A stretch of 64,000 nt of DNA from Actinophytocola sp. (GCF_036555685.1 NZ_DATBKY010000172.1:6412-70411), one strand, 5' to 3'; shown: positions 7,519 to 37,079, numbered from the stretch's first letter. Notes: generated from the letters alone by a model not told the origin. Translations and numbers: made by a program.

Positions 7519-7590
7519 TTCCGGCTCCTTCGTTCGTTGTCGTACACACAGCGAACCTCGCGTGAGCCGGGTCGGCATCGGGCGTGTTCC

Positions 7591-10191: not shown

Positions 10192-10335
10192 GCCGCAGCC
10201 TAACCCGGCGGAAACGCTCGGGCGAACACCGTCGCGGCGGCACAATATGCGCCGAATCTTTGCTGCGGCAGGGATTTGCTCACCCGACGTCTTCCTCGGT
10301 ACGCGGCGAGTGACTATGGTCGGGCTTGATCGCCT

Positions 10336-11931: not shown

Positions 11932-12028
11932 GCGGCGTCCGCTCCTGCCCGGCTGGCCGGGGACGGGGCGGTTGCCGGATCGGCAACGAACGTTGCGCGA
12001 GGCCGCCCGGCGGGCGCATCGTCCGGAT

Positions 12029-12649: not shown

Positions 12650-12673
12650 CGACCGAGGGTTAGCCTGGCGGCC

Positions 12674-13498: not shown

Positions 13499-13508
13499 CG
13501 TCACCGGC

Positions 13509-15312: not shown

Positions 15313-15313
15313 G

Positions 15314-20877: not shown

Positions 20878-22428
20878 TCACGACGGCCGTCCCGCCGCAC
20901 GCGGGCCGGTCTCGCGCAGGGCGTTACGGTCGATCTTGCCGTTGACGTTCAGCGGCAGCGAGTCCCGATGGTTCAGCCGCCGCGGCACCATGTGGATCGG
21001 CAGGTACTCGCGCAGCCACCGGACGAGCTGCCGGCCGGGCTGCGGCGTGCCGGTGTAGAACGCGACCAGCTCCGGGCCGTCCGCGCCGCGCTCCGCGATC
21101 ACCACCGCCTGGGTCACGTCCGGGTGGCGGGCGATGGCGGCCTCCACCTCGCCCAGCTCCACCCGGTAGCCCCAGATCTTGAGCTGGTGGTCGAGCCGTG
21201 ACAGGTGGACGAGCTCACCGGCCTCCCACCGCACCCGGTCACCGGTGCGGTAGTAGAACTCCGGCCGCGGCGCGACACCGTCGGCCGGCACGTACCTGTC
21301 GCCCTCCCGGACCAGGAACCGGCCGGCGTCGTCGCGTGGATCCAGGTACCCGGCGAACCGCTGCGCCCCGCGCACGCACAGCTCGCCCTCCTGCGCCGCG
21401 AACCCGTCCTCGTCGACGATCACGTGGTCGAGATAGTCGTACACCGGTCCGATGGGGACGGTGTCGTTCGACGTCGCGGGCCAGCCGGCCGGGTCGGCGG
21501 GGAGGCGGTATTCCGTGCACGCCACGGTCAGCTCCGTGGGGCCGTACACGTTGTCGATGCGGGCGCCCGGCGCGACCGCGCGCCACGCCGCGGCCTGGGC
21601 CCGGGTGAGCTGCTCGCCGATGAAGATGCTCTGCCGCAGCACCGTGGACCGGCCGGTGGGCAGGTTGCCGAGGTTCGCGCTGACCGACACCACGGACGGC
21701 ACCGAGAACCAGTGCGTGATCGCCTTGTCCGCCAGGAAGTCCACCGGGCTGAGCAGGTCGGTCCGGCTCGGCGACACCAGCGTGGCGCCGCCGCCCCATG
21801 TGACGAACAGGTCGAACACCGACGGGTCGAAGGTGAAGTCGAACGTGTGCGACATCCGGCAGCCCGGGCCGACCTCGAAGCGCGCGATGTTGCGTGCCAC
21901 GAACGGCGACACGTTGCCGTGGCTGATCGGCACGCCCTTGGGTCGGCCCGTCGACCCGGAGGTGAACAGCACGTACGCCACGTCGTCGGCCGCGGCCGAC
22001 AACGCCGGTAGCGGGCCCGGCCGGGCGGCCAGCACGTCGGCGGCACCGAGCCGGACGACGGTGCCCGCCGCGCCGGCCAGGCCGTCCAGCTCGGCCACTC
22101 CGTCGTCGGCGAGCAGCACGTCGCAGTCGATCGAACCGCAGATGACCTCGTTGCGGCGCACCGGATGCGACGGGTTGAGCGGCACGACCGTGGCGCCGAG
22201 CCGCAGCGCGGCGAGGTAGCCGGCGAACGCCACGAGGCTGCGGCTCGCCAGCAACGCCACCCGGTCCGGTACCGAGCCCCGGGCGGCGAGGACGGTGCCG
22301 GCCACCGCCTCCGCGCAGCGGCGCAGCTCGCGGTAGGTCAGCACCTCCCCGTCGACCTCGAGCGCGACCGCCTCCGGGTGCCGCTCGGCGGATCGGGCGA
22401 ACCATTCGTAGAGCGTCCTCGACGTCAT
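20878..22428 (-). CDS. Stand-alone amino-acid adenylation (A) domain enzyme
   Basis: LTYREL (A1), FTSGSTGRPKG (A3), FDPS (A4), NVYGPTE (A5), YRTGD (A7), KIWGYRVELGEVE (A8), NGKIDR (A10); no carrier domain. Confidence 0.93.
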   Translation of the reverse strand: MTSRTLYEWFARSAERHPEAVALEVDGEVLTYRELRRCAEAVAGTVLAARGSVPDRVALLASRSLVAFAGYLAALRLGATVVPLNPSHPVRRNEVICGSIDCDVLLADDGVAELDGLAGAAGTVVRLGAADVLAARPGPLPALSAAADDVAYVLFTSGSTGRPKGVPISHGNVSPFVARNIARFEVGPGCRMSHTFDFTFDPSVFDLFVTWGGGATLVSPSRTDLLSPVDFLADKAITHWFSVPSVVSVSANLGNLPTGRSTVLRQSIFIGEQLTRAQAAAWRAVAPGARIDNVYGPTELTVACTEYRLPADPAGWPATSNDTVPIGPVYDYLDHVIVDEDGFAAQEGELCVRGAQRFAGYLDPRDDAGRFLVREGDRYVPADGVAPRPEFYYRTGDRVRWEAGELVHLSRLDHQLKIWGYRVELGEVEAAIARHPDVTQAVVIAERGADGPELVAFYTGTPQPGRQLVRWLREYLPIHMVPRRLNHRDSLPLNVNGKIDRNALRETGPRAAGRPS

Positions 22429-22441: not shown

Positions 22442-23464
22442 TCAGGCGATGTCGCGCATGGCGCGGTCGCACACGGCCAGCGCGCAGTCGAGCCGGCGCA
22501 GGATGCCGATGGCCACCTCGGGGAGCATGTCCGGGCGGGCCGCGGCGAGCGGGGCGATGACGTGGTTGAGCCAGCCCTCGGCGTGCTCGACGTCGACCAC
22601 GACGTGCTCGAGCAGGTAGTGCATCTCGGCGTCGGTGAGCCCGACCCGCCGCCAGCCCTCGATCTGCCGCTCGAGCCGCCCCGGCACCACGAGCTCGGTG
22701 GCCTGCAGCATGCCGATCGCCTGCGGCGCGAGGCTGCGGTCCGCGGAGGTCTGGAAGTACATGTTGGCCATCCGCAGCTCTTCCACCCAGTAGAAGTCCA
22801 CGTTGGACAGATAGTCGTCGGCGGGTACGCCGATGCGCTTCATCATGTCCAGGCGCAGCTGCCGGTGCGTGCCGGCGAGCTTCCCGTTGCCCATCTCGTC
22901 CCAGAAGTTGCCGGCCAGCTCGATCTTCTGGCCGCCGTGGATGCCCGGTAGCAGCAGCGCGACCAGGTCACCGAAGTGGATGTCGAACGGCGTCTCCTGC
23001 GCCTGGAACTCCCGCAGCTGCTCGAAGGTCGCCCGCTCGGCGAGGAAGTCGAACAGCGGGTGGGTCACGCCGGACGCGTGCTCCTCGCACACCACGGTGG
23101 CCCACTTCCCGAAGCCCTCGGGCGTGGTCGGGATCTCCAGGCCCGCGCCGTACACCTTGCGGTCGCGCGCGAGCCACGCGTCGCCGACGCGGCGGTGCGC
23201 GTTCACGACGACCGGATCCGTGTAGTCGCGCCAGTCCGGGGACCACGGCGGCAGGATCCGGTGCGCGTAGACCTCGTACAGGAAGCGCTGTGCCTCCAGC
23301 TCCGCGGCGGGATCGTCGTCGCCGAAAGCGCGGATGCTCACCTCGTCGGCGCGCCGCTCGAGCTCGTGCAGCGCGTCGGCCGACGGATCGGCGGCGACGG
23401 ACCGGACCAGGCCGCTGAGCTCCGTCGTGGTCGTCGCGCCGGGCTTCACATCCATCTGAGTCAT
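22442..23464 (-). CDS. Heme-oxygenase-like diiron oxidase (iron-containing redox enzyme family)
   Basis: 340 aa; NFWDEMGNG....H (E-x9-H), QATE and EHVVVDVEH (H-x3-D-x2-H) diiron ligand pattern; AAGAAGGAG RBS before ATG 23464. Confidence 0.88.
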   Translation of the reverse strand: MTQMDVKPGATTTTELSGLVRSVAADPSADALHELERRADEVSIRAFGDDDPAAELEAQRFLYEVYAHRILPPWSPDWRDYTDPVVVNAHRRVGDAWLARDRKVYGAGLEIPTTPEGFGKWATVVCEEHASGVTHPLFDFLAERATFEQLREFQAQETPFDIHFGDLVALLLPGIHGGQKIELAGNFWDEMGNGKLAGTHRQLRLDMMKRIGVPADDYLSNVDFYWVEELRMANMYFQTSADRSLAPQAIGMLQATELVVPGRLERQIEGWRRVGLTDAEMHYLLEHVVVDVEHAEGWLNHVIAPLAAARPDMLPEVAIGILRRLDCALAVCDRAMRDIA

Positions 23465-23496: not shown

Positions 23497-26400
23497 TCAG
23501 CTCTGCGTCGCGATCCGGAACAGCTCGCGGACCGGGGTGTCGGGCGCGGCCGCCGCCCGGGCGAGCACGGCGAGCAGGCCGGCCCGCCACCGCCGCACGG
23601 TCGCCTCGTCGAACAGCGCGGCGTCGTACTCCCAGCCGCCGGCGAGGCTGCCGTCCTGCTGGGGCAGCAGGGAGACCGCGCTCTCGTAGTGCAGGCCGAT
23701 CGGCGCGTACACCGGTCCGATCGGGGCGAAGTCGAACCCGTTGTCGCCGCCGACGAGCTCCATGTCGAACTCGCTCGTCCGGAACGCCCGGCCCGCCATC
23801 GGCGCGTTCTGTACGGAGAAGCAGGCCGCCAGCGCCGCGTCCGGGATCGCCAGCTCGGCACGCAACGTCTCGAACGGCACGGTCGGGCGGCCGAACGCGG
23901 CGGTGGTCACCTCGCGGGTGACACGCAGCAGGTCGGCGAACGTGGCCGCACCGGCCACCGGCACCCGGACCACGAGCCGGTTGACGAACCAGCCGACCAG
24001 CCGCTCCCAGTGCGACCGGACGCGCAACGCGTTCGGCGTGACGACGGCGATCTCGTCCGCGCCGGAGTGGGCGGCGAGGACCGCGGCGTGGGCGGCGAGG
24101 CCGGTCATGTACAGCGACGTGCCGCTGCGCTTGCCGAGCGCGTCCACCGCCGCGCCCAGCTTCCGGTCGACGACCAGGTCGAGGAAGCCGGGCCGGAACT
24201 CGTGGCCCGCGCGCTCGACCTCGGTGGGCAGCCCGATGCCGCCGAGCCCGCGCAGCTGGTCGCGCCACGCGGCCAGGTCCTCTCCGTAGCGCGGGCCGGC
24301 CCGGTACTCGCGGTGCCACTGGACGAACTCGGCATAGTCGCCCTCGATGGGCTTGAGGTCGGGCTCGGTGCCGTCGGCGTAGGCGTGGTAGGCGGTGCCG
24401 ATCTCGTGCAGCGTGATGCCGATGGACCAGCCGTCGATCGCGGTGTGGTGGACCGTCCACTGCACGACGTGGTCGTCCGGGCCGAGCCGGTGCACGCGGG
24501 CGCGGATCAGCGGGCCGGCGGCCAGGTCGAACGGGCGGGCGCCCTCCTCCCGGATGAGCCGGCGGACCGTGCGCTCGGGGTCCGGACCCGCCACATCGGA
24601 CACCTCGACCGGGATCTCGGTCAGGTCCAGCACGCGCTGGACGTATTCGTCGCCCTCGCGGTGCAGGGAGACCCGCAGCGGCGCGTGCCGGCGCACCAGC
24701 AGCGCGAAGGCCCGGCGCAGCGCGCCGAGGTCGAGCCGGCCGCGCATGCGTACCGCGAACGGGGCGTTGTACCAAGGGTCGTGGCCGTAGCCCTCGTCCG
24801 CGCGGAAGAGCGCCTCCTGCGGGAAGGACTGGGGCAGCACGGTTCCCGGCGTCATGCGCGGCACGGGCCGCTCGGCGTAGACCTGGTCCTGGCGCGCGCT
24901 CGCGCGCTCCCGTTCCCGTTCGACCAGCGTGGCCAGCCGGGCGACGGTCGGCTCGGCGAGGAAGTCGGCGAGCCCGATGTCGACGCCCAGCCGGTCCCGC
25001 ACCCGTGCGGTCACCTGGGTGGCCTGCAGCGAGTTGCCGCCCAGCTCGAAGAAGTCGGTCGACTTGTCCACAGTAGACAGCGAGAGCAGCGGCCCGAGGA
25101 CCTCGGTGGCGATGACGCGTTCCAGCTCGGTCCACTCCGTGTCCGTGGCCGTCGCCGCCGGTTCGGGCGGGGCCGGGAGCGCCCGGCGGTCGATCTTGCC
25201 GCTCGGGGTGCGGGGCAGCTCGGCCAGGACGGCGAGCCGGGTGGGAACCATGTAGTCGGGCAGCCGCGCGGCCGCGACCTCGCGGACCTCGTGGAGTGCC
25301 GGCTCCTCACCGGCGGGCACGACGTATGCGGTCAGGTGCCGGCCGGCGTCCGCGCCGTCCCACACCTCGACCGCGACCTGCCGCACCCGTGGGTCGGCGG
25401 CCAGCACCGACTCGACCTCGCCGAGCTCCACCCGGAACCCGCGGAGCTTGACCTGGCGGTCCACCCGGCCGAGGAACTCGAGTACGCCGAGCGACGACCG
25501 GCTGGCGGCGTCGGGCAGCGGCACCGGTGTCCACCGCGCCAGGTCGCCGGTGCGGTACAGCCGCGCGCCCGGTTCGTCGCCGAAGGGGTCGGGCACGAAC
25601 CGGTCGGCGGTGTGGCCGGGCCGGCCGAGGTAGCCGCGGGCGAGCCCGGCCCCGGCGATGCACAGCTCCCCCGGGACGCCCGCCGGCACCGGGCGCAGGT
25701 GCTCGTCGAGCACGTACGCGCGATGGTTGGGCATCGGCAGGCCGATCGGCGGGATCCGCCCGCCGGAGGGTGGCTCGCAGCGCATGAGGGTGACCGCGAC
25801 CGTGGTCTCGGCCGGGCCGTAGCCGTTCCAGAACTCGCGGCGCTCGGTGGCCCACTCGTCGACGAGCACGCCCGGTGGCGCCTCGCCGCCGACCGACACC
25901 AGTCGCAGGTGGGGCAGCGCGGCGGGGTCGAGCAGCGGCATCAGGCTCGGTGGCAGCTCGGCGGCGGTGACGCGCTGCTCGATCAGCAACCGCTGCAGCG
26001 CCTCGACCGAGAGGCGTTCCTCGTCGCCGGCCAGGACCAGCGTCGCGCCGGCACAGAGCGCCGACCACAGGTCGAACACGGACACGTCGAACGTGAGCGC
26101 GGCGAAGCCGAGCAGCCGGGTTTCCGGCCCGATCCCGTAGGCGGTCGCGATGTGCCGGGAGAAGTCGGCGACCGCGCGGTGCTCGACCAGGACGCCCTTC
26201 GGCCGGCCGGTGCTGCCCGATGTGTAGATGACGTAGGCGCCGCCGTCCGGCCGTGCGGTCATCGCATCGACCGGCCGCGCCGCCGTCGATTCCGGCTCCA
26301 GCACGGGAGTCCCGTCCGGGAACCGGTCCGCCAGGTCGGCCGTCGTGACCACTATGGACACTCCGGCGTCGGCGCACAGGTACGCGATGCGGGCCGGCGG

Positions 26401-29400
26401 ATACTTCGGGTCGACGGGCACGTACGCGGCGCCGGCCATCATGATGCCGAGCGGCGCCCACACCGTCGCGGCGGTGCGCGGCAGGCATACCGCGACCCGG
26501 TCCTCCGGGCCGACGCCTCGCTCGCGGAGCTCGGCCGCCAGCCCGGCTGCCCGGTCGAGCAGCTGCCGGTAGGTCAGCTCGCCGTCGGTCGCGACGAGCG
26601 CGGTCGCGTCGGGGTCCTGCTGGACGACCAGGCCGGGAATCGTGGCGGGTGGGTCGTTGAGCAGGCCGCCGTCGCCCGCGCGCAGCAGCTCGGCCCGCTC
26701 CTCGCCGGTGACCAGGTCGGCGGCGTCGATGGGCCGGCCCGGCTCGGCGCGGTCGAGTGAGACGGCGAGGGCGGTACGCCGGATCAGCGCGGTCACGGTG
26801 TGCTCGGTGATCGCCCGCCCGTCGAACACGGCGGTGATCTCGGTGCCGCCGTCGGGTGCGGGCGCGATGTCGAGGCCCACGGTGGCGGCCGCGTGCGGCG
26901 CGAGCCGGCCGGCTCGGTCGTGCACGGCGACGCTGACGAGCGGGTCCTCGGCGAGCATCGAGCGCAGCTTGGACCATGGCACGTCGGCGTTGCGCCGGGC
27001 GGCCTCGAGCGCCTCGGTGGCGGCGTCGGTCAGTCCCGCACCGATCGCGACCCGGACCGGCAGCATCCGGCAGAAGGGCCCGGGCACGCCGTCGAGGTCG
27101 GGGGGCAGGACCGGGCGGGTGACCACGCCGAGGACGACGTCGTCGTCGCGCCCGCAGCGGCCGAGCACGAGCGCGAGGGCGGCGAGCCAGCGCCTCGTCG
27201 TGGCGGTCTCCGCCACGGTGAGGCTGGCCTGTCCACGGGCGGGCGCGCCGGGCGCCACGCGGTCGGCGGGGATGCCCGAGGCCGGGGCGCCGCGAAGGGT
27301 GGTCTTCCAGTACGCCTCCTGCCGTTCCCGCTCGGCGGTGCGCCGCGGATCGACCTGCCAGGCCGCGTAGTCGTCGTAGGTGAGCGTCGTGGCGCCAGCC
27401 GGCTTGTCCATTGTGGACTCGACCCACGGTCGCAACGCCTCGGCCTCGGCGTAGAACTCCTGCTGCACCGACCGAGGTACCCGACCGCGGACCCGCCCCG
27501 GCCGGATGGGCGGGACGGCCCGCTGCGCCGCCCGCAGCCCGGCGAGGAACCCGGTGCGCCGCGGCTCGGGCCACGCGGCGAGGCGGTCCGCGAGCGGCCG
27601 GGACTCGACGTGCTCGCGCCCGGGGTCGGCCCCGATCAGCGCGGGGACGTCGACATGCCCGCTCGCGGACCGCGGCAGCTCGGCGATCTGCCGGACGTCC
27701 GCGGGCAGCAGAGCGCTGGGCACGCGCTGGCGCAGCCGGTTGAGCGACGCGGCCACGTCGACGCCGCGCCCGCCGGCACCGGCGACCCAGGCCCGCTCCC
27801 CCAGGACGACGGCCGCCGCGATGGCATCGTCGCGTTCGAGCTGCGCGGCCACCCAGAGATCCTCGCCACCGGGCCGATCGCCCAGCCGCTCGAGCGTGCC
27901 ATCGCCCCGGCGACGCGCCCGGACTCCGGTACGAACGTCGCCGTCCGCACCGGTGACGACCAGTTCCCCGGCCACGGCATCGGGCACCGGCCGACCGGCC
28001 GGGTCGGCAAGCCAGCCACCCGGAACCGCTCCGAAGTCCTGCTGCCCCGGCGGAACGCAGGCGTACACGCCGCCGGTGGCAGCCGTACCGAACACACGCC
28101 ACGCGCCCGGCACGGCGGGGCCGGCGACCACACCGCCATCGCGCGGGCCAGGCGCGAGCGGGTCGCGGAACTCCGGCGACGCGCCGGCGGCCAACGCGGC
28201 CAGCGCCACCGGCAGCAACGCCGGGTCGTCAGCGCCCAAGGCGAGCACGGCAGGCGAGCCCGGCTCGAACGGCAGCGCGCTCGCCGCCGCCACTGCCTCG
28301 GCCAAGGTCCGGGCCGACGCACCTCGCCAGCGGCCGGATGGCTCATCGGGTGGCGGGGCGTCGGCCGACAGTGCCAGGTGGACGACGGAAACCGGTGGGG
28401 GCACGGCGAACGACGTACCGTCCGGGACGACGAGCACCGCCGCGTCACGGCAGCGTGCGGCCAGCTCGGTGGCCGACGCGTCCAGCGGGACCTGCTCGAC
28501 GTCCGCGCCGAGTGAGAGGGCACCGAGCGCGGCGGCGAGCAGGTCCGGCGACGCGGGTAGGCGGAGCAGCACCCGGTCGCCGGCGCGTACGCCCGCCGCC
28601 CGCAGCTGGGCAGCGGCCGCGCCCGCCGGGGCGTATGCGGGTAGCGGTGCGACCGGGCGCGGCGGCACGGGCTCCACGTCGGCGGGCGCCACCAGCGGGA
28701 TGTCGCTCAACCGCTGGTCGTCCGGTGCGGAGGCCAGCTCCTTTAGCAGCCGTCCGTAGCGGTCGGCGAGCCACTCGGCGACCGGGCGGTCGATGCGGTG
28801 CTCGTCGTACTCCACCCGGACCCAGATCGAATCCGTCGGCAGGGCGACCGACACCACCAGCGGCAGGCCGGTCTGCTCCTGCTGGCGCAGCGCGCGGACG
28901 GTGACCGTGCCGGTCGACTCGGCGGTGTCCGATTCGGACAGGAAGTAGTTCTGGAAGCCCAGCACGCTCTCGTACAGCGGCTCCCCCATCGGCACCGCGC
29001 TGCACCGCTGCGCCGCGGCCACCGGGATGTGCTCGAACGCGCGGCCGGCGATCAGCTGTTCCTGTACCGCGGCGAGCCACGGGCCGACCGGCAGCTCACC
29101 GTCGACGGCGACGCGCACCGGGACCGTGTTGACGAACATGCCCACCCGCTCGGTCACGCCGGGCAGCTCCGCGGGGCGGCCGGACACGGTCGTGCCGAAA
29201 ACCGCGTCGGGGGTGCCCGCGCACCGCGACAGCAGCAGGCCCCACGCGGCGTGGGCGATCGTGCTGGGCAACACCCCCGGCCGGCGGGCCAGGACACCGG
29301 GCACGAAGCGCTCGATCCGGCCGGCCGGTCCGGCCTCGGCGCTGACCCGTCCCACCCGGTCGACGCCGAGCGGGGTGGGGTGCCGCAGGTCGCCGAGCAG

Positions 29401-30003
29401 CCGCTTGAAATGCGCGTTCGCCGCCTCGGTGGTGTCGTGGTCGCGCAGCCACGTCACGAACTCGCGGAACGGCGCGGCCGGGGGCAGCGCCGCCGCCCGC
29501 CCCTCCTGCCGGGCGGCGATCAGCTCGGCCAGGTCCTCCTGCACGGTCGGCATGCTCCAGCCGTCGAGCACGAGGTGGTGTGCCGTCGTGACGAGCCGCC
29601 ACTCGGCCTCGCCCACCCGCAGCGCGTGCGCCCGCAGCAGCGGTGGCCGGCGCATGTCGAACGGCGTCGCCCACTGGGCGGCCAGTGCGGCCCGCACCGC
29701 GGCGTCCACATCGCTACCGCGGGCGTCGGTGACCTCGAGGCGCAGCGGCGCTTCGGCGAACACGACCTGTACCGGGTTCTCGACGCCCTCCCAGACGAAC
29801 CCGGTGCGCAGCACGGTGTGCCGGGACACGAGGTCGTCCAGGCCCTGCCGCAGCGCCACCTCGTCCGGTACACCGGTGACGCCGAGGACGAACTGCTGCT
29901 GGTACACCGGACGGTCCGCGGTCCGCAGCGCGTGCACGAGCATGCCCTGCTGCATCGCGGTCAGCGGGTAGATGTCGCGCACCCGGCGCTTGGTCCCGGC
30001 CAT
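23497..30003 (-). CDS. NRPS: C - A(degenerate) - C(truncated) - A - T - C (about 2168 aa)
   Basis: C1 DIYPLTAMQQGML and HHLVLDG (~29570); eroded A-like region ~28660-27640 with no SGSTG and GHVD in place of GKVD; C-terminal half of a C domain; intact A (YTSGSTGRPKG, GYGPAE, SGKID); T GGNSL (~25030); terminal C with HHTAIDG (~24440). Confidence 0.9.
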   Translation of the reverse strand: MAGTKRRVRDIYPLTAMQQGMLVHALRTADRPVYQQQFVLGVTGVPDEVALRQGLDDLVSRHTVLRTGFVWEGVENPVQVVFAEAPLRLEVTDARGSDVDAAVRAALAAQWATPFDMRRPPLLRAHALRVGEAEWRLVTTAHHLVLDGWSMPTVQEDLAELIAARQEGRAAALPPAAPFREFVTWLRDHDTTEAANAHFKRLLGDLRHPTPLGVDRVGRVSAEAGPAGRIERFVPGVLARRPGVLPSTIAHAAWGLLLSRCAGTPDAVFGTTVSGRPAELPGVTERVGMFVNTVPVRVAVDGELPVGPWLAAVQEQLIAGRAFEHIPVAAAQRCSAVPMGEPLYESVLGFQNYFLSESDTAESTGTVTVRALRQQEQTGLPLVVSVALPTDSIWVRVEYDEHRIDRPVAEWLADRYGRLLKELASAPDDQRLSDIPLVAPADVEPVPPRPVAPLPAYAPAGAAAAQLRAAGVRAGDRVLLRLPASPDLLAAALGALSLGADVEQVPLDASATELAARCRDAAVLVVPDGTSFAVPPPVSVVHLALSADAPPPDEPSGRWRGASARTLAEAVAAASALPFEPGSPAVLALGADDPALLPVALAALAAGASPEFRDPLAPGPRDGGVVAGPAVPGAWRVFGTAATGGVYACVPPGQQDFGAVPGGWLADPAGRPVPDAVAGELVVTGADGDVRTGVRARRRGDGTLERLGDRPGGEDLWVAAQLERDDAIAAAVVLGERAWVAGAGGRGVDVAASLNRLRQRVPSALLPADVRQIAELPRSASGHVDVPALIGADPGREHVESRPLADRLAAWPEPRRTGFLAGLRAAQRAVPPIRPGRVRGRVPRSVQQEFYAEAEALRPWVESTMDKPAGATTLTYDDYAAWQVDPRRTAERERQEAYWKTTLRGAPASGIPADRVAPGAPARGQASLTVAETATTRRWLAALALVLGRCGRDDDVVLGVVTRPVLPPDLDGVPGPFCRMLPVRVAIGAGLTDAATEALEAARRNADVPWSKLRSMLAEDPLVSVAVHDRAGRLAPHAAATVGLDIAPAPDGGTEITAVFDGRAITEHTVTALIRRTALAVSLDRAEPGRPIDAADLVTGEERAELLRAGDGGLLNDPPATIPGLVVQQDPDATALVATDGELTYRQLLDRAAGLAAELRERGVGPEDRVAVCLPRTAATVWAPLGIMMAGAAYVPVDPKYPPARIAYLCADAGVSIVVTTADLADRFPDGTPVLEPESTAARPVDAMTARPDGGAYVIYTSGSTGRPKGVLVEHRAVADFSRHIATAYGIGPETRLLGFAALTFDVSVFDLWSALCAGATLVLAGDEERLSVEALQRLLIEQRVTAAELPPSLMPLLDPAALPHLRLVSVGGEAPPGVLVDEWATERREFWNGYGPAETTVAVTLMRCEPPSGGRIPPIGLPMPNHRAYVLDEHLRPVPAGVPGELCIAGAGLARGYLGRPGHTADRFVPDPFGDEPGARLYRTGDLARWTPVPLPDAASRSSLGVLEFLGRVDRQVKLRGFRVELGEVESVLAADPRVRQVAVEVWDGADAGRHLTAYVVPAGEEPALHEVREVAAARLPDYMVPTRLAVLAELPRTPSGKIDRRALPAPPEPAATATDTEWTELERVIATEVLGPLLSLSTVDKSTDFFELGGNSLQATQVTARVRDRLGVDIGLADFLAEPTVARLATLVERERERASARQDQVYAERPVPRMTPGTVLPQSFPQEALFRADEGYGHDPWYNAPFAVRMRGRLDLGALRRAFALLVRRHAPLRVSLHREGDEYVQRVLDLTEIPVEVSDVAGPDPERTVRRLIREEGARPFDLAAGPLIRARVHRLGPDDHVVQWTVHHTAIDGWSIGITLHEIGTAYHAYADGTEPDLKPIEGDYAEFVQWHREYRAGPRYGEDLAAWRDQLRGLGGIGLPTEVERAGHEFRPGFLDLVVDRKLGAAVDALGKRSGTSLYMTGLAAHAAVLAAHSGADEIAVVTPNALRVRSHWERLVGWFVNRLVVRVPVAGAATFADLLRVTREVTTAAFGRPTVPFETLRAELAIPDAALAACFSVQNAPMAGRAFRTSEFDMELVGGDNGFDFAPIGPVYAPIGLHYESAVSLLPQQDGSLAGGWEYDAALFDEATVRRWRAGLLAVLARAAAAPDTPVRELFRIATQS

Positions 30004-31319
30004 CAGGCCCCCTCCCCGGCCGGCTCCGCCGGCTCGGCCGGTCCGACCCGGCGCACCGGCGAGAACCACACGAGCAGCGGCGCGACCGCGAGGACCACGA
30101 CCGCTGCGAACAGCGCCTCGCGCGGGCCGATCGCGGCGCCCAGCAAGCCGCCGAGCAGCGCGCCGAGCGGCCAGAGTCCCACGGTGAGGAACCGGAACGA
30201 GCCCATCACCCGGCCCTGCAGGTCATCCGGAGTGGACCGTTGGAACAGGCTCTCCACGTTGATCGCGGACACCGCACCGCTCGCCGACATCAGGAACGCC
30301 GCGACGATCAGCATCGGCAGCGCCGCCCCGATGAACGCCGGCGTCAGCGGGATCAGCAGGGTGGACAGGCAGAACCCGGCGAGGCCGGTGCAGATCGCAC
30401 CGCCGACCCCGATCCGGCGCGCGATCGGGCCGGCGGCGAGCGCGCCGACCAGCGCGCCGGGGCCGGTGCCGATCAGCGTGAGGCCGACCAGCGCGGTCGG
30501 CAGGTCCAGCACCGAGACGACATAGATGACGTACAAGGTGGTCTCCGCGGACCACGCCACGTTGCTGATCGCGATCGCCCGCATCAGCGGCCCCAGCACG
30601 GCGTGGCGGGCGAGGAAGCGCAGCCCCTCGAGCAGGTCGTCCCACGCCCGGCGTACCCCGCGCGCACCGTCGGCAGCCTGCCGCGCCGGCTCGGGTTCGC
30701 GGTACTTGATGCGGCCGAGCGTGAACACGGACGCGAGCAGGGACAGGCCGTCCAGGATCACGGCGATCGGCGCGGTGACCGCCTGCACCAGCAGGCCGCC
30801 GATGGTCGGTCCGGTCAGCTGTGCGGTGGCCCGGGCCGACTCCATCCGGCTGTTGGCCTCGATCAGGTGCTCGCGGCCGACCAGGCCCGGCAGGTAGCTC
30901 ATGTACGCGGTGTCGAACCAGACCGTGAGCACCGCGGAGATCAGCAGCGTCGCCCCGAGCAGGCCGATCGAGAGGATCCCGAGCGCGAACTCGACCGGGA
31001 TCATCAGCAGCAGCGCGGCGCGCACGAGGTTCGTGATGATCAGCGTCGGCCGCTTGCGCATGCGGTCGACCCAGATCCCGGCCACGAGGTAGAGCACCGC
31101 GGGCAGCTTGCTCAGCAGGCCCAGCACGCCCAGCTCGTCGGCGCCCGCGTTCAGCGTCTCGATCGCGAGCAGCGGCACCACGATCGTGCTCACGTAGGCG
31201 CCGAACTGGGAGAACGTCTGGCCTGTCCACAGCTTCACGAAGTCGCGGTTGTGCCAGACGGGTGCGGAGAACGGCCGCCACCGGCGGGCGGTTCGGGTCG
31301 TTCCGGTCTTCTCGGCCAC
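30003..31319 (-). CDS. MFS exporter (EntS/macrolide-efflux-like) embedded in the NRPS operon
   Basis: RDFVKLWTGQTFSQFG, WVDRMRKR, QGRVMG; its TGA overlaps the NRPS ATG (TGATG at 30005-30001). Confidence 0.9.
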   Translation of the reverse strand: MAEKTGTTRTARRWRPFSAPVWHNRDFVKLWTGQTFSQFGAYVSTIVVPLLAIETLNAGADELGVLGLLSKLPAVLYLVAGIWVDRMRKRPTLIITNLVRAALLLMIPVEFALGILSIGLLGATLLISAVLTVWFDTAYMSYLPGLVGREHLIEANSRMESARATAQLTGPTIGGLLVQAVTAPIAVILDGLSLLASVFTLGRIKYREPEPARQAADGARGVRRAWDDLLEGLRFLARHAVLGPLMRAIAISNVAWSAETTLYVIYVVSVLDLPTALVGLTLIGTGPGALVGALAAGPIARRIGVGGAICTGLAGFCLSTLLIPLTPAFIGAALPMLIVAAFLMSASGAVSAINVESLFQRSTPDDLQGRVMGSFRFLTVGLWPLGALLGGLLGAAIGPREALFAAVVVLAVAPLLVWFSPVRRVGPAEPAEPAGEGA

Positions 31320-31321: not shown

Positions 31322-33340
31322 TCAGCCCACCCCCGCCTCGGCGCGCAGCACGGCGGGTGCCGCGTCGCCCGCGATCGCCACGGGCGCCGCCAGGTAGTGC
31401 CGGCGCACCGGCGATCCGTCGGTCATGCCGAACGCACCGTGCAGGTGGACGGCCTCGCGGCTGGCGTCCAGCGCCAGCGCGCCCGCCTCGGCGAGCACCC
31501 CGGCGGCGAGCGCGGGATCCGGTCCGCCGTCGTCGAACCGCCCGGCCAGGTCGGTGACGAGCGCGGTGAGCGCGTGCAGCCGGACGGCGAGGCGGGCGAG
31601 CCGGAACGCGATGTCCTGGTTGGCGATCAGCGCCCGGCCGAACTGCTCGCGGGTGCGCGCCCGATGGACGGTGTGCGTCAGGCAGCCGCCCGCGAGGCCG
31701 AGCAGCCACGCGGCACGGCGCACCCGCCCGGCGGCGAGCACCTCGGTGCCGTCGGCGAGCACGTCCGCGGCCGCCGCCGGACCGTCGACGGCCCACACCC
31801 GGCCGGTGGCCGTCTGATGTGGACGGAACGGCAAGCCGGTGGCGAGCGCGAGCGCCGGCCCGTCCTGAACGGCCACCACGGCGTCGGCCGAACCGGGGTC
31901 GGCGACGACGGGGCGGTCGGGCTGGCGGAGGTCGGCGAGCACGGCGCGCCAACTGCCGTCCAGCGGGGGCAGCTCGCGACCGGCCCGCACGAGCGCGTCG
32001 ATCGCGGTGAGGGTGTCGAGGATGCCGTCGTCGTGCAGGCCGCGGCCCAGCTCCGCGCAGCAGATCACGGCCGCGCGCAGGCCGAGGTCCAGCCCGCCGC
32101 GCTCGGCCGGCACGGTCAGCCCGAACACCCCGAGCCGGGCCAGCTCCGGCCAGCACGCGCCGGCGGGGTCGCGCTCGTCGTACGCGCCGGCCACGGCCCG
32201 GCACGCCGCGCGCAGCTCGGCGGCCAGCGGCTCGTCGGCGTCGGGCAGCGGCAGGCCGGAGGAGGCGACCAGCTCCAGCATCATCTCCGAGGTGCCGGCG
32301 GACAGGGTCAGTCCGGGCGCCTCGCGGTAGGCGGACTCGAGCACGCCCGGCTGCCGCAGCGCCGCGGGCCCGGCCGTCTCGGCACACCACCACGCGACCG
32401 ACCGGGCGGTCTCGGCGCACCACAGCTTGGTCGCGGCCGCGGCGACCGCGTCCACCCGGCCGGTGTCGAGCTGGTCGACGCAGCGCTCCGCGAGTGCGCG
32501 GCCGGCCGCCGTGTGCGTGCGCAGGCGGCCGTACTCCGCCGCCTGCTCGCTCGCCGGGTGCACGGCGCGCAGCCACCGGTCGGCCTTGGCCACGTAGTCG
32601 ACCCCGGTGCGCTCCAGCGCGAGCGCCTCGGTGATCAGCGGCCACGCGCCGCCGACCGGGCCGATCACCGCGGTGGCCGCTACCTCGACGCCGTCGAGCC
32701 GCACGTCCGCGAAGTCGTCGTCGGCGAGGGAAGCCAGCCGGCCGATCGTGATGCCGGGCAGGTCCAGCGGGACCAGGAACAGCGTGATGCCGCGGTAGGG
32801 CGTGGCCTCGACGCTGGTCCGCGCCGCGACCAGGCCGTAGTCGGCCAGGGCGGTGCCCACGCTGTAGACCTTGTGGCCGCTGATGCGCCAGCCGTCCCCG
32901 GCCCGTGTCGCCGTGGCTTCCAATGTGGACAGATCGGAGCCGACGCCGGGCTCGGAGTAGAGCACGGTCGCGGTCCGCCGGCCGGCGGCGAGGCCGGGGA
33001 GCACGGCGGCGCGCTGTTCGGGTGTGCCGGCGGTCAGCAGGAAGTTGCCGCAGATCTGGACGGACAGGGTGTGCAACACCTCGGGCACCCCACCGGCGAT
33101 GAGCTCGCCGACGACCGCGGCGGCGCAGCGGGCGGGCAGGGCGCGTCCGCCGTAGGCCCGCGGCCACGAGACCGCGAGCAGCCGCTGCTCGCCCAGCAAG
33201 CGGTAGAGCGGCCGCGGGTCGGGCTCGGTCCCCGCCCGACGCGCCTCGGTCACGGCCGCCAAGGCGTCGCGTGCCGCCGGGCCGGCGAGCACCGCGCGGA
33301 CCTCCTTGGCCGCGAGCTCCGCCTCGGGGTCGGTTGTCAC
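31322..33340 (-). CDS. Fused tandem acyl-CoA dehydrogenase-like flavoenzyme (672 aa)
   Basis: N-terminal ACAD (WPRAYGG, SEPGVGSDL, ISGHKVY, ALER, AGTSEMM) followed by a shorter second ACAD-like unit (REQFGRAL, HLHGAFGM); GTGA overlap with the upstream NRPS stop. Confidence 0.85.
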   Translation of the reverse strand: MTTDPEAELAAKEVRAVLAGPAARDALAAVTEARRAGTEPDPRPLYRLLGEQRLLAVSWPRAYGGRALPARCAAAVVGELIAGGVPEVLHTLSVQICGNFLLTAGTPEQRAAVLPGLAAGRRTATVLYSEPGVGSDLSTLEATATRAGDGWRISGHKVYSVGTALADYGLVAARTSVEATPYRGITLFLVPLDLPGITIGRLASLADDDFADVRLDGVEVAATAVIGPVGGAWPLITEALALERTGVDYVAKADRWLRAVHPASEQAAEYGRLRTHTAAGRALAERCVDQLDTGRVDAVAAAATKLWCAETARSVAWWCAETAGPAALRQPGVLESAYREAPGLTLSAGTSEMMLELVASSGLPLPDADEPLAAELRAACRAVAGAYDERDPAGACWPELARLGVFGLTVPAERGGLDLGLRAAVICCAELGRGLHDDGILDTLTAIDALVRAGRELPPLDGSWRAVLADLRQPDRPVVADPGSADAVVAVQDGPALALATGLPFRPHQTATGRVWAVDGPAAAADVLADGTEVLAAGRVRRAAWLLGLAGGCLTHTVHRARTREQFGRALIANQDIAFRLARLAVRLHALTALVTDLAGRFDDGGPDPALAAGVLAEAGALALDASREAVHLHGAFGMTDGSPVRRHYLAAPVAIAGDAAPAVLRAEAGVG

Positions 33341-36300
33341 TGCGCCGCCTCCGGGTCCAGGTCCGCCAGGCCGGCGAGCAGGCCGGCGACCGCCACGTCG
33401 TCGAGGCCCGCGTCCGGGAAGTCGGCCGCGGAGTACACGGTCTCGGCCGTCGCGCAGTGCGCCACGAGCCGGACCAGGTGGTCTCGCACCTGCTCGGCCA
33501 GGCCGTCGGCGCCGGTGACGATCAGGCGGGGACCCGCCAGCGTCACGAGCGTCCGGGGCCCCGCGTCGCCGATCGCGGTCACCTCGGCGGCGTCCGGCAC
33601 GGGCAGGACCCGCACGCCAGGCACGGCCGGGTCGTCGTCCTCGGCTGCCCGGAACGCCTCCTTTACCGCGCGGATCAGCTCGGCGTCACCGCGCACCCGG
33701 CCGACCCGCAGCAGCCCAGGCTCGGCGCGGCCGTCCGCGGAAGGCTCGGCGCGCCGCGTGTCGGCGACCGCGACGGCCGGCTCGCCCGTCGCCGCGATGG
33801 TCGCGGCGATGACGAGGTCGGTGGTCGTGGTGGCGTACGCCTCGTGGGCCGGGCCGGCCAGCGCGGCCACCGTCTCCGGCGGCACGAGCACGCCGAGCCC
33901 GGCCGTCTCGTGTGGACCGTCCGGGCAGAGCCCACGCACGAGCCGGCCCAGCGTCCAGTCGTCTACATGGGACGGATCGGCGGTCAGCCGGCGGCCGTCG
34001 ACGGTGACGCCGGGTACCGTCGGCGTCTCGGCCGCGGGAGCCGGCAGGCGGATCACGGTCGGGCCGGCGATGCCGAGGGGCGCCGACCGCTCGACCGGTT
34101 CCGCCGCGTCGAGCGCCTGGGCGAGCGCGCGGATCGTACGCAGGTCGAGGATCTGCCGGACGGTCAGCTCGAGCCCGTGCCGGCGGGCCTCGGCGACCGC
34201 GTGGATGGCGAGGATCGAGTCGCCGCCGATGTCGAAGAAGTCGTCGGTGACGCCGAAGTCGCCCGCCGGGAGCAGCCACTCCCAGCCTTCCAGCAGGGTC
34301 TCCTCGGTCGGCGTGGCGGGATCCTCCGGTGCCTCCCGGGCAATCGGTGCGGCCGCCGGGTCGTCGCTGACCTCGGCCACCTCGCCGGTCCGACCACAGA
34401 GGACCAGCGTGCCGTCGGGCCGGAGGCGTGCCAGGTCCCCGGTCCGGAAGCGGCGCGCACCGCCCGCGTCCGGCACGAACGCGGCGGCCGTCGCGCCGGG
34501 TGCGGCGGGATACCCGCGGGTGACGCGCGGCCCGCCGACGTGCAGCTCGCCCCGGCAGCCCGACGGCACCGGACGGCCCCACCGGTCCAGCACGGACAGC
34601 CGAACCCCGGGCAGCGGCCGGAGGGGCTCGTCGAGCCGGCCGGCGGCAACGGGCCCCGCGGGGTCGTACAGGGTGACCGCGTCCCAGCCCGCGTCCCGCA
34701 GCCGGGACCGCAAGACGGGTTCGACCTGCTCGCCCGCCAGGACGGCGGCCCGGCGGGGCCGCAACGCCGCGGCGTCGCCGACCGCGAGCATGGCCGCGAG
34801 GTGCGACGGCGTCGTGGTCAGGAAGTCGACCGGATGCGCCGCGAGGAACGAGCCGAGCTCCTGCGGATCGAGCGCGGTCGCCTCGTCGACGACGTGCAGC
34901 GCGCCGCCCCCGGCCAGCGCGCAGAGCACCGGCGTCAGCGACGAGTCGACGGTCGGCGGCTGCACCAGCAGGTGGCTCGCCCCGGCCGGCAGCTCGGCGA
35001 GCAGGCCACGCACCATCGACACGAGGTTGCGATGCGTGAACAGCACGCCGTCGTCGAGCATCAGGCACGCGCCGTTGTCCGGCCGCGCCACCGGGCCGGG
35101 CGGGCCCGGATCCGGCACCGCCGCCACGTCGATCGGCAGCACCTGCACCGAGGCGGGCAAGGCGACGTCGGCGAACGGGAGCGCCAGCGCCAGCCGGGCA
35201 CCGCACCGCGCGGCGACGGCGGACAACTCCGCCGCGGTCTCCCCCGGATCGACCGGCACGCACACCCCACCCGCCTTCAGCACCCCGAGCAGTGCCACCG
35301 CGTACTCGGCGGACCGCGTCAGCGCGACCAGGACCGGGGTTTCCGGACCGGCGCCGTGCGAGCGCAGGCCGTGCGCGACCCGGTTCGCCGCGGCGTCGAG
35401 GCCGGCGAAGGAAAGCGACCCGCCCACCCACACGACCGCCGGTGCGTCGGGCGTGGCCGCCGCCCGCTGCGAGACCAGCTCGTGCAGCAGCGTGTCCTCG
35501 ACAACGGGCGCGGGCACGGCAGGCTCGTCCCACAACGCGTCGAACGTCCATACGGGACGATCCGGCGCGGCGAGGCCGGCGCGCAGCAGGCGCGGGAACA
35601 CCTCGCACACCAGAGCGGCCGCGGCGGGGTCGACCACGTCCGGCCGGTACCGCACGCTCCCGGTGTAGGGCGTGGGCTCGGACTCCAGATCCAGCCACAG
35701 GTCGTGGGTGACGGTGCCCGTGTCGATCAGCGAGGCGTCGACCGCCCGCGGCATGCGGCCCGCCGGCAACCGCGGCGGCGCCGGTGGCTTCAGGTTGATC
35801 GCGGCCTGCGCCAGCGGCGTCACACCCGCCGCCCGCTCGGGCGCCACCGCCGCCACGATCTGGTCGAACGCGACCGAGCCGTGGTCGTGCGCCTCGCCGA
35901 CCACCCGCCGCGCCGCCCGCACGAGCTCGCGGAACGTCGGCCCGCCGGAGAGGTCGAGCCGCAGCACCACCTGGTCGACGAACATGCCGATGACGTCGCG
36001 CAGCTCCGGCAGCGGCCGCCCGGCGACCGGGCTCGCGACCGCGACGTCCGCGCCGCCGAAGACCCGGCCGAGCGTGGCCGCGTACGCCGCGAGCATGCCC
36101 ATGAACGCGGTGGCCCGCTCCGCCCGGACGAACTCGTCGAGGGCCGCCGCGGTGGCGGGCTCGATGGCGAAGTCCAGCCGGCGGCCGCGCTGCGACACCC
36201 GCTCGGGCCGCGGCCTGCCGTGCGTGAGATCCACTGTGGACAGGTCGGCCAGCTGCCCCCGCCAGTAGTCCAGGTCCTGCCGCGCGACCGGCTCGGCGGA

Positions 36301-36852
36301 TCGCTCTTCCTGCCAGGCCGTGAAGTCGGCGTACTGCACCGGCAGCTCCGCCCAGTCCGGCGCCTGGCCGGAGAGCCGCCGCTCGTAGGCCACGGTGAGG
36401 TCGCGGATGAAGATCTCGGCGGAGATGGCGTCCGCGATCGCGTGGTGCAGCACCACGACCAGGCCGTCGGTGTCCGCGCCGAGCCGGACGTGCGTCATGC
36501 GCCACAGCGGGGCGCGGCCGAGGTCGAACACCTCCGTGCCGACCCGCGCGCACAGCTCGAGGTAGGCGGACTCGGAGTCGTCGCTCAGGTCGGCGAACCC
36601 CACGGTCACGGCCTCCGGCACCGCCTCGACGACCTGCCACAAGCTGTTGTCCCGCACCGTGAACCGGGTGCGCAGCGACTCGTGCCTGCCGACCACGTCC
36701 GCCACCGCCGCCCGCAGCACCGCGGGGTCGAACCGGCCGGCGTAGCGGCGTTCGAAGCTGATGTTGTGCACCGGCTCGTCCGGCACCAGCTGCTCGACGA
36801 ACCAGAGCTGCTGCTGGGCCCGCGACGCCCGGACGGTCAGGACATCGCTCAC
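33337..36852 (-). CDS. NRPS: C - A(degenerate) - T - E(degenerate) (about 1171 aa)
   Basis: C with HHAIADA (~36440); A lacks the TSGSTG loop (GACLMLDDGVLFTH), has YDPAG for YGPTE and lacks the A8-A10 subdomain; T GGDSI (~34217); short E-like tail (EAYATTTTDLVIA, VKEAFRA, SAADFPDAGL). Start re-picked at GTG 36852. Confidence 0.85.
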   Translation of the reverse strand: MSDVLTVRASRAQQQLWFVEQLVPDEPVHNISFERRYAGRFDPAVLRAAVADVVGRHESLRTRFTVRDNSLWQVVEAVPEAVTVGFADLSDDSESAYLELCARVGTEVFDLGRAPLWRMTHVRLGADTDGLVVVLHHAIADAISAEIFIRDLTVAYERRLSGQAPDWAELPVQYADFTAWQEERSAEPVARQDLDYWRGQLADLSTVDLTHGRPRPERVSQRGRRLDFAIEPATAAALDEFVRAERATAFMGMLAAYAATLGRVFGGADVAVASPVAGRPLPELRDVIGMFVDQVVLRLDLSGGPTFRELVRAARRVVGEAHDHGSVAFDQIVAAVAPERAAGVTPLAQAAINLKPPAPPRLPAGRMPRAVDASLIDTGTVTHDLWLDLESEPTPYTGSVRYRPDVVDPAAAALVCEVFPRLLRAGLAAPDRPVWTFDALWDEPAVPAPVVEDTLLHELVSQRAAATPDAPAVVWVGGSLSFAGLDAAANRVAHGLRSHGAGPETPVLVALTRSAEYAVALLGVLKAGGVCVPVDPGETAAELSAVAARCGARLALALPFADVALPASVQVLPIDVAAVPDPGPPGPVARPDNGACLMLDDGVLFTHRNLVSMVRGLLAELPAGASHLLVQPPTVDSSLTPVLCALAGGGALHVVDEATALDPQELGSFLAAHPVDFLTTTPSHLAAMLAVGDAAALRPRRAAVLAGEQVEPVLRSRLRDAGWDAVTLYDPAGPVAAGRLDEPLRPLPGVRLSVLDRWGRPVPSGCRGELHVGGPRVTRGYPAAPGATAAAFVPDAGGARRFRTGDLARLRPDGTLVLCGRTGEVAEVSDDPAAAPIAREAPEDPATPTEETLLEGWEWLLPAGDFGVTDDFFDIGGDSILAIHAVAEARRHGLELTVRQILDLRTIRALAQALDAAEPVERSAPLGIAGPTVIRLPAPAAETPTVPGVTVDGRRLTADPSHVDDWTLGRLVRGLCPDGPHETAGLGVLVPPETVAALAGPAHEAYATTTTDLVIAATIAATGEPAVAVADTRRAEPSADGRAEPGLLRVGRVRGDAELIRAVKEAFRAAEDDDPAVPGVRVLPVPDAAEVTAIGDAGPRTLVTLAGPRLIVTGADGLAEQVRDHLVRLVAHCATAETVYSAADFPDAGLDDVAVAGLLAGLADLDPEAAQ

Positions 36853-37079
36853 CGCGACCCGGCCTCCGGTTCCATCGCGCGGCGCAAGCTCTTCGGGCGC
36901 ATGTCCGTCCAGACCTGGTCGATGTGGGCGAGGCACTCGTCGCGGCCGCCGGTGAACCCGGTCGGCCGCCAGCCGGCGGGCGGGTCCTGGTCCGCCGCCC
37001 AGACCGAGTACTGCTCCTCGTCGTTCACCACGACCTGGAAGGTCTCCATTGCTGCTCCCGCTGCTCCGGTCATGATCAT
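36849..37079 (-). CDS. mbtH: MbtH-like protein
   Basis: VVVNDEEQYSVW...PAGW...CLAHIDQVWTDMRPKSL; CAGGAG RBS; overlaps both neighbours (ATGA/GTGA). Confidence 0.95.
   Translation of the reverse strand: MIMTGAAGAAMETFQVVVNDEEQYSVWAADQDPPAGWRPTGFTGGRDECLAHIDQVWTDMRPKSLRRAMEPEAGSR

Follow-up and report, generated by a model that had tools for sequence, protein, structure and literature searches.

Gene organization of the locus

The analysed window is a 64-kb stretch of actinomycete DNA (64,000 nucleotides, Actinophytocola sp.) with a G+C content of about 73%, in which gene calls were based on GC3 together with Pfam matches. An operon encoded on the minus strand runs in the order NRPS3, MbtH-like protein, NRPS2, ACAD2, MFS transporter, NRPS1, HDO and Afree, and comprises the following features, given by increasing coordinate:

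20878..22428, minus strand: Afree, a stand-alone adenylation (A) enzyme with motifs A1-A10, pocket code DPFFIIVVAK and no carrier
22442..23464, minus strand: HDO, a heme-oxygenase-like diiron enzyme (PF14518), HrmI-like; best PDB match HrmI 9n1a, E 1e-29
23497..30003, minus strand: NRPS1, with a C domain, an A*-C* remnant and A2-T4-C(terminal), from Pfam and motif reading
about 26706-28566, minus strand: decayed A*-C* remnant in NRPS1
30003..31238, minus strand: MFS transporter, from Pfam
31322..33340, minus strand: ACAD2, a fused two-lobe acyl-CoA-dehydrogenase-like protein
33337..36852, minus strand: NRPS2, C2-A*-T3-X
33340..34065, minus strand: X domain in NRPS2, conserved, about 240 aa, with an epimerization/condensation-like half fold
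34093..34320, minus strand: T3, orphan carrier in NRPS2, FFDIGGDSILAIH
34348..35490, minus strand: A* remnant of NRPS2, with the P-loop deleted, A5 degenerate and A8-A10 missing
36849..37049, minus strand: MbtH-like protein
37076..40558, minus strand: NRPS3, A1-T1-C1-T2
37150..37370, minus strand: T2, orphan carrier in NRPS3, FFDLGGTSMDLVSL

The arrangement as a whole is most closely matched by two Actinophytocola MAG contigs (L001 and L002), which display the same gene order and carry Afree orthologues with 79-83% identity whose position after HDO is kept. In the window, Afree constitutes the final gene of the operon; only 13 nt separate the HDO stop from its start, and both genes are translationally close-coupled. 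From the opposite side, a GMC oxidoreductase gene (19255-20856) converges on Afree at a distance of 21 nt. Its product was considered as a pathway member, but the gene is not conserved beside Afree in L002 and was therefore treated as lying outside the cluster.

Regarding the remaining genes, the ACAD2 start overlaps the NRPS2 stop; the N-terminal half of ACAD2 matches PDB entry 8hk0 (E 7e-84), for which a literature search turned up nothing usable, and its C-terminal half matches generic ACADs. The pocket codes of the intact cis A domains were read as about DVLEVGGVAK for A1 (NRPS3) and about DVFESGGVAK for A2 (NRPS1), both displaying Glu at pocket position 278, an Orn-like pattern. Residues 479-666 of NRPS1 have no counterpart in Amycolatopsis taiwanensis. 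The locus of this species (L031) also has two features without counterpart in the window, namely a complete PKS module separating NRPS3 from the MbtH gene, and a LanB-like gene upstream.

Afree is a complete adenylation enzyme without a carrier

Afree corresponds to the ORF at 20878-22428 (minus strand), which starts with ATG, displays a GC3 of 0.95 and encodes 516 aa. Pfam analysis identified an AMP-binding domain (PF00501, E 6e-60, residues 10-362) followed by AMP-binding_C (PF13193, E 2.5e-10, residues 427-498), and no PP-binding domain was found in the protein, which ends 15 residues past A10. All the core motifs A1-A10 are legible in its translation, the first five being LTYRELRR, LRLGATVVPLNP, AYVLFTSGSTGRPKG, FDPS and NVYGPTE, and the last five GELCVRGAQRFAGYL, YRTGDRV, LDHQLKIWGYRVELGEVE, LPIHMVP and NGKIDR. 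The earlier note on this DNA had described the gene as a complete A domain with no carrier, and the ten motifs, the two AMP-binding domains and the lack of PP-binding bear this out.

The specificity pocket was assigned by anchoring on motifs A4, A5 and A10, resulting in D201, P202, F205, F241, I268, I270, V294, V302, A303 and K498. The resulting code, DPFFIIVVAK, is identical to the one previously proposed from a manual alignment. Hence both subdomains and all ten motifs of an ANL-superfamily A domain are present, with the alpha-amine-binding Asp of A4 (D201) and the Lys of A10 (K498) in place. The score against TIGR01733 (AA-adenyl-dom) was marginally under its cut-off (310.5 vs 317.4 bits), because the protein belongs to a divergent subfamily and not owing to any defect. 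An AF2 model of Afree was obtained with a pLDDT of 83.4.

VinM and IdnL7 are the nearest solved relatives

In a sequence search of the PDB, the best single-domain matches to Afree were 6AKD (E 1.6e-93) and 8K4R (E 3e-89), followed by a third match with E 1e-58; the first two correspond to IdnL7 (PMC11253843) and to the VinM-VinL complex (bioRxiv 10.64898/2026.07.20.739675), respectively. The same two entries, VinM-VinL 8k4r and IdnL7 6akd, ranked 1 and 2 when the Afree model was searched with Foldseek, both with 39% identity. Afree shares 44% identity with VinM over 360 aa, as compared with 32-35% for the cis A domains of its own operon; in general, identity was 39-44% to VinM/IdnL7 and 24-35% to canonical A domains. 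A resemblance to VinM-like or DltA-like free-standing ligases had been suggested from the segments FDPSVFDLFVTW and THWFSVPS, both of which are found in Afree, and it turned out to be real, VinM 8K4R and IdnL7 6AKD being the best matches in both sequence and fold.

Like Afree, VinM (vicenistatin) and IdnL7 (incednine) are free-standing proteins of about 500-540 aa with a pocket lined with bulky Phe, and the three have in common the motifs TFDxxF(D/C)xS, (H/V)WFSxPS, YGPTELTV and YRTGDRVR. The bulky-residue pocket of IdnL7/VinM enzymes selects Gly, Ala or Ser (PMC11253843, PMC11284099). In addition, Cys 236, Ala 301 and Thr 331 are highly conserved in the VinM-type pocket, corresponding to C217, A285 and T318 of IdnL7 (PMC11253843). 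At these three positions Afree displays Pro202, Ile270 and Ala303, and thus lacks the VinM-type residues; its DPFFIIVVAK differs accordingly from the VinM code in 8K4R, DCFFFALVTK (i.e., D(C)CFFFALVTK), and VinM and IdnL7 are amide-forming enzymes. Enzymes of the VinM type are further marked by a conserved Tyr in contact with the bent pantoate moiety, and by taking an aminoacyl-carrier instead of a holo-carrier. The genomic context differs as well, since the VinN/L/K/J beta-amino-acid starter cassette and the macrolactam PKS of vicenistatin-type clusters are absent around Afree; specifically, no beta-amino-acid A enzyme, stand-alone ACP, dipeptidyl transferase, peptidase or macrolactam PKS was found in the 64-kb window.

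DltA, too, is a free-standing A enzyme, about 500 aa long, and resembles Afree in the motifs around WxSxPS and xGE; some Afree homologues are annotated as DltA by their source databases. DltA structures compare to the Afree model with a TM of 0.82-0.86 and an identity of 24-26%, and in the NCBIfam DltA models Afree reached 212-213 bits, below the cut-offs of 476 and 560. Position 301, which is Cys in DltA, is Ile in Afree, and no DltC-like stand-alone carrier was found in the 64-kb window.

The DPFF family and its genomic contexts

A database search retrieved more than 100 Afree homologues with 60-84% identity from many actinomycete genera, and the code DPFFIIVVAK or DPFFVIVVAK was present in 105 of 142 aligned sequences. 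Pairwise identities separated three groups: the DPFF group (58-76% internally), a sister group (50-55%, represented by loci L009-L020) and the VinM outgroup (40-47%). The DPFF family is a large, uncharacterised family related to VinM and IdnL7. The code had been taken in the earlier note for an unusual hydrophobic one with Pro at position 236; it is instead a family signature, shared by more than 100 homologues in unrelated clusters, and therefore gives no hint of an exotic or hydrophobic substrate particular to this cluster. The product of HDO as the Afree substrate was discarded as the main explanation for a related reason, as the same pocket occurs in more than 100 homologues with clusters that lack HDO. 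To specificity predictors, DPFFIIVVAK would look like an unusual hydrophobic code; treating it as the signature of a trans-loader family would allow a better annotation of many actinomycete clusters with apparently A-less carriers.

DPFF proteins with 58-76% identity and the same or a near-identical code were located in clusters with an A-less carrier directly before a KS-ACP-R gene, for example loci L025, L026 and L028 (FkbH type), L027, L005-L008 and L030. This carrier can be a PCP on its own (91-125 aa) or form the last C-T of an NRPS with an architecture like C-A-T-C-T. In Actinokineospora, Sphaerisporangium and Saccharothrix, the DPFF gene (73-76% identity) follows an FkbH-like gene or is sometimes fused to one, and a stand-alone PCP lies directly upstream of the KS-ACP-R gene; these FkbH-type clusters also hold a 3-hydroxyacyl-CoA dehydrogenase/ACP/ACAD set, KAS III genes, an MFS gene and a luciferase-like monooxygenase. 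No second A gene was found within the 10-kb flanks of the FkbH-type loci L025, L026 and L028, and a literature search on the FkbH/KS-ACP-R/A cluster type turned up nothing usable. The Streptomyces piniterrae cluster (L027) encodes C-A-T-C-T, KS-ACP-R, the A enzyme, MFS, a monooxygenase, AT and TE, while other Streptomyces and Lentzea clusters combine an A-T-C or T-C protein with a separate PCP of 91-125 aa before KS-ACP-R. A conserved A-T-C-T cassette was ruled out, as NRPS3 shares only about 30% identity with the analogous L027 protein, which reflects a common architecture only. Judging from these gene neighborhoods, the DPFF protein is the obvious candidate loader of the recurring A-less carrier, and the family context speaks for a free carrier thiol as the acceptor, unlike the tethered amine acylated by VinM. 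The sister-group clusters have a different content, namely a second A gene, a PLP decarboxylase, two ACPs and a BtrH_N-like protein.

Two carriers of the operon have no working A domain

A six-frame scan of the whole 64-kb window revealed four carrier domains only, and no stand-alone carrier was found anywhere in it. The cis A domains of T1 and T4 are intact. T2 (FFDLGGTSM) follows C1 in a module without an A domain, and T3 (FFDIGGDSI) follows the A* remnant, which has lost the P-loop (...LMLDD--GVLFTHRN...), displays a degenerate A5 and retains nothing from A8 to A10. Consequently, the operon that includes Afree holds exactly two carriers without a working A domain, and the earlier note had already named both, by their GGTSM and GGDSI motifs, as lacking a functional A domain in cis: T2 has no cis A domain at all, and that of T3 is a dead remnant. 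Both features expected from a trans-acting A enzyme were thus found together, namely the lack of a fused carrier in Afree and the presence, in the same operon, of carriers without a functional A domain in cis.

The best non-self match of T2 was the orphan carrier of the S. piniterrae C-T (L027; 46% identity, 51 bits). Against the orphan carriers of KS-ACP-R clusters, T1 scored 29-40 bits, T3 0-37 and T4 22-28. The likeness of T2 to these A-less carriers may reflect a shared position upstream of a KS and not a shared A partner, because all of those carriers feed a KS, and ancestrally T2 did so too.

As for the X domain that follows T3, no PDB match was obtained by sequence. An AF2 model (pLDDT 82.7) gave TycB3(E) and GrsA PCP-E as top Foldseek matches, with a probability of 1.0 and a TM of 0.36. 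GGDSI-type carriers normally sit upstream of epimerization domains, and the half epimerization/condensation-type fold predicted by the model would fit the GGDSI motif of T3.

The A domain of NRPS2 decays among related clusters

The A domain of NRPS2 (module 3) was found in every state, from intact to absent, among related clusters. It is intact, with P-loop, A8 and A10, in A. taiwanensis, Labedaea rhizosphaerae and Kutzneria sp., where its code was read by eye as about DSTKIGHIGK, which is Asp-like. In the window and the Actinophytocola-type relatives it persists as remnants with differing deletions, and in two metagenomic relatives it is wholly deleted, leaving C-T-X proteins of 752-802 aa. 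Across eight decayed orthologues, A* displays 62% identity and an indel fraction of 0.10, as compared with 74-80% identity and indel fractions of 0.004-0.04 for C2, T3 and X. As these three domains are conserved while A* decays, selection still acts on T3 but not on its cis A domain; it follows that T3 remains functional and has to receive its amino acid in trans. With the cis A domain intact, decaying or deleted, and the carrier and condensation domains conserved throughout, these clusters constitute a natural example of how trans replacement may reprogram an assembly line. On this comparison of sequences, T3 is taken to be a recently orphaned carrier and not the ancestral partner of Afree.

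The free A gene was located in four clusters whose module-3 A domain is decayed or deleted (those of the window, L001, L002 and a 60301-bp contig), and a 158381-bp contig, assigned by its matching length, is probably a fifth. One cluster without it is L032, where the operon stops at HDO with no free A gene after; this contig begins in the ACAD gene, so that module 3 lies outside it. The L032 HDO shares 87% identity with that of A. taiwanensis over 314 aligned residues. The A. taiwanensis locus L031 was read up to the inside of the HDO gene, and the species' own HDO was not among the matches of the HDO search. A metagenome scan based on ACAD yielded short contigs only, and P0264, P0271 and P0283 were located in HMGL-like/ATP-grasp clusters.

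The decayed and intact lineages also differ in T3 itself, where helix II reads GGDSILAIH in the former and GGDSIRAIH in the latter. The altered start of this helix would correspond to the A-facing surface, and the substitution appears to go towards the S-L-L pattern of the usual DPFF-family carriers.

Proposed function of Afree and alternative explanations

With the integration of these findings, we propose that Afree probably loads T2 and/or T3 in trans through thioester formation, its substrate being a small neutral amino acid. The enzyme would activate this amino acid as aminoacyl-AMP, Gly or Ala being most likely and Ser less so, and would then load it onto the phosphopantetheine thiol of a carrier that lacks an A domain of its own and belongs to the same assembly line. 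As the bulky pocket of IdnL7 and VinM takes Gly, Ala or Ser, a small substrate is more likely for Afree, with a small neutral amino acid as the best guess by analogy. Two partners are available. One is T2, at the C1-T2 end of NRPS3, which would be of the partner type of DPFF members elsewhere; the family context and the carrier similarity favour it. The other is T3, in the C2-A*-T3-X protein NRPS2, whose own Asp-type A domain is decayed where Afree is present, and the tracking of module-3 A loss by the free A gene speaks in its favour; Afree may serve both. Once T2 and/or T3 are charged, the peptide would be assembled in the order aa1 (A1), aa2 (T2), aa3 (T3) and aa4 (A2), with release by the terminal C domain. 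Since the ancestral Asp-like residue does not fit the wholly hydrophobic pocket of Afree, loading of T3 would therefore imply a changed product. Charging of T2 and/or T3 in trans, as postulated in the earlier note, thus stands as the function best supported by the sequences, with the amendment that T3 would not be the ancestral partner, given its intact and Asp-like cis A domain in relatives. One point counts against the formation of thioesters: among solved structures Afree is closest to VinM and IdnL7, and both of these are amide-forming enzymes.

Loading of A-less modules in trans by free A enzymes is a well-known arrangement and represents no new mechanism. In the yersiniabactin system, three carriers are charged by the A domain of HMWP2; the ninth module of SyrE, which has no A domain, depends on SyrB1/SyrC for its supply; and trans A domains act on the A-less modules of WS9326A. 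As in these systems, the window encodes A-less carriers (C-T and C-A*-T) together with an A activity able to serve them. In contrast to them, the candidate loader is a bare A protein, instead of an A-T didomain or part of a megasynthase, it belongs to a VinM-related clade, and one of the orphan carriers is visibly losing its cis A domain across relatives.

The alternative that survives best, itself a version of trans loading, is one in which Afree serves T3 alone and A1 loads both T1 and T2 iteratively (A-T-C-T); we regard it as possible, though doubtful. Afree would have been gained at the 3' end of the operon and would have displaced the cis Asp-type A domain, which then decayed, so that a small amino acid would have taken the place of the Asp-like residue at position 3 of the peptide. 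The occurrence of Afree in lineages whose module-3 A domain has decayed or been deleted agrees with this sequence of events, and so does L032, from an A. taiwanensis-like lineage, in which the operon ends at HDO; yet this contig starts in the ACAD gene, leaving module 3 out, and a DPFF-type A gene could sit in the A. taiwanensis cluster beyond the 10-kb flanks. T2 is nearly identical between A. taiwanensis and the window, and this near-identity in both lineages, together with the lack of Afree in L032, suggests that T2 is perhaps loadable without Afree, e.g., by A1; iterative loading of T2 by A1 is possible. Recent recruitment would also fit the location of the nearest non-orthologous Afree relatives (73-76% identity) in unrelated FkbH/KS-ACP-R clusters, and the helix II change of T3 from GGDSIRAIH to GGDSILAIH brings it closer to the usual family carriers. 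However, among the four carriers of the window T3 resembles the usual family partners least (0-37 bits), and the analogous C-A-T-C-T protein of L027 is still accompanied by a DPFF member.

A second alternative is that Afree, like VinM, forms an amide, aminoacylating the amine of a carrier-tethered substrate such as a basic residue on T1 or T4. The target would be a side-chain or alpha-amine, and the outcome a branch or a transient protecting group. The closer identity to VinM and IdnL7 (39-44%) than to canonical A domains (24-35%) speaks for it; moreover, the sister-clade clusters of the L009-L020 type resemble the protecting-group logic of Vin/butirosin, and the Orn-like Glu 278 of A1 and A2 makes tethered amines plausible. 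Against it, the window contains no VinN/VinL/VinK/VinJ set, Afree is missing the pocket residues that define VinM, in FkbH-type and L027-type clusters the DPFF member is the sole A enzyme for an otherwise unloaded carrier, and T2 and T3 would be left with no dedicated loader. We consider this explanation unlikely. The corresponding proposal for the whole clade, that Afree and the more than 100 DPFF proteins are VinM-like ligases acting on a carrier-tethered amine, or on a hydroxyl in the FkbH-fused forms, is similarly improbable; if true, VinM-like DPFF ligases would extend the aminoacyl protecting/branching logic of macrolactams to pure NRPS and small hybrid lines. Direct acylation of a carrier-bound amine had also been contemplated in the earlier note, and of that proposal the relationship to VinM and IdnL7 as nearest matches stands, while the VinM-type pocket residues and context are absent, which leaves it with little probability.

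A third alternative, that Afree is unconnected to T2 and T3 and either acts on a carrier encoded beyond the window or is a passenger gene of recent insertion, is very improbable: it is a lineage-specific addition at the operon end whose closest relatives belong to different pathways, but the 13-nt coupling to HDO, the position kept in L001 and L002 (79-83% identity), the strongly coding codon bias (GC3 0.95) and the lack of any free-standing carrier in the 64-kb window all speak against it. A seryl-ACP ligase of the aminomalonyl pathway (ZmaJ/ClbH-A1 type) was rejected as well, as the window holds no 3-hydroxyacyl-CoA dehydrogenase or free ACP and the Afree pocket offers no polar residue for the Ser hydroxyl.

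Returning to Afree as a trans loader, an MbtH requirement of the enzyme was considered and set aside. MbtH homologues were located only in the window and L031, and none near DPFF family members elsewhere, which makes it unlikely that Afree needs one; more likely, the MbtH-like protein of the operon serves A1 or A2 instead.

Gene clusters surrounding the free-standing A enzymes

Homologues sharing the DPFF-type pocket of the free-standing A enzyme are found in a cluster that is widespread among actinomycetes (loci L025, L026, L028 and L030; proteins P0079, P0085, P0102 and P0113), which comprises genes for RidA, a PCP, a KS-ACP-R protein, a 3-hydroxyacyl-CoA dehydrogenase, an ACP, an ACAD, a KAS III, an FkbH-like protein, the DPFF-type A enzyme itself, an MFS protein and a luciferase-like monooxygenase. 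In some of these genomes, the FkbH and A enzymes constitute a single fused protein of 870-890 aa. A literature search found no paper on this RidA/PCP/KS-ACP-R/FkbH/DPFF-type A cluster.

The sister-clade A enzymes occur in a different cassette, represented by positions 1972-13869 of locus L015 from Actinomadura montaniterrae and laid out similarly in L010 and L017; it encodes an ACP, an A protein, a PLP decarboxylase of the Orn/DAP type, a second ACP, a pair of ACADs, a BtrH_N-like protein and, finally, the sister-clade A enzyme. This arrangement resembles the "load, decarboxylate, protect" logic of butirosin and vicenistatin, but the cassette lies outside any macrolactam PKS.

Domains and enzymes of the NRPS operon

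Five further features of the window stand out, the first of which follows T3, the carrier domain of NRPS2:

33340-34065 (-), X, a conserved domain of ~240 aa following T3 (12791-13714 in the orthologous Amycolatopsis taiwanensis cluster, L031)
31322-33340 (-), ACAD-like fusion protein, with two ACAD-like halves in one chain
22442-23464 (-), HDO, with homologues in loci L033, L034 and L044
26706-28566 (-), decayed module remnant in NRPS1, flanked by the first C domain and the functional A2
14956-15886 (+), pair of small genes with weak EspC and WXG100-like Pfam matches

The X domain is present in all relatives, including those in which the A domain has been deleted. It has no sequence match in Pfam or the PDB, but AF2 predicts with confidence a fold similar to a single epimerization-domain lobe; docking is one possible role. 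The neighboring ACAD-like protein resembles a fused alpha-beta heteromeric ACAD, its N-terminal half matching PDB 8HK0 (E 7e-84), and the overlap of its start codon with the NRPS2 stop suggests that its substrate is bound to T3.

The two working cis A domains, A1 (NRPS3, 37076-40558 (-)) and A2 (NRPS1, 23497-30003 (-)), have similar pocket codes, read by eye as approximately DVLEVGGVAK and DVFESGGVAK, respectively; to our knowledge, neither is among the listed codes. Both carry Glu at position 278, as ornithine-type codes do, which suggests basic substrates, possibly modified by the HrmI-like oxygenase (HDO). The closest solved relative of HDO is HrmI, a lysine N6-oxygenase. The HDO homologues (65-71% identity) lie outside NRPS clusters; their neighbors are an HMGL-like gene, a protein of 412 aa that matches nothing in Pfam, and either one or two ATP-grasp ligases, in what looks like a separate small-molecule pathway employing the same oxygenase.

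Divergence from the Amycolatopsis taiwanensis cluster

L031 (JAFB01000025.1) has retained an entire PKS module (KS-AT-KR..., 1777 aa), which separates the A-T-C-T protein from the MbtH gene, and it carries a LanB-like (Lant_dehydr_N) gene directly upstream. Since the window lineage lacks both, the two lineages should make different products. The NRPS1 remnant begins with an A domain that is highly degenerate and lacks a downstream carrier; next comes a C domain reduced to its C-terminal half, in which HHxxxDG is missing. The remnant is still shrinking, as its residues 479-666 have no counterpart in the A. taiwanensis orthologue.

Just beyond the NRPS cluster, the Pfam matches of the small-gene pair suggest type VII secretion substrates.
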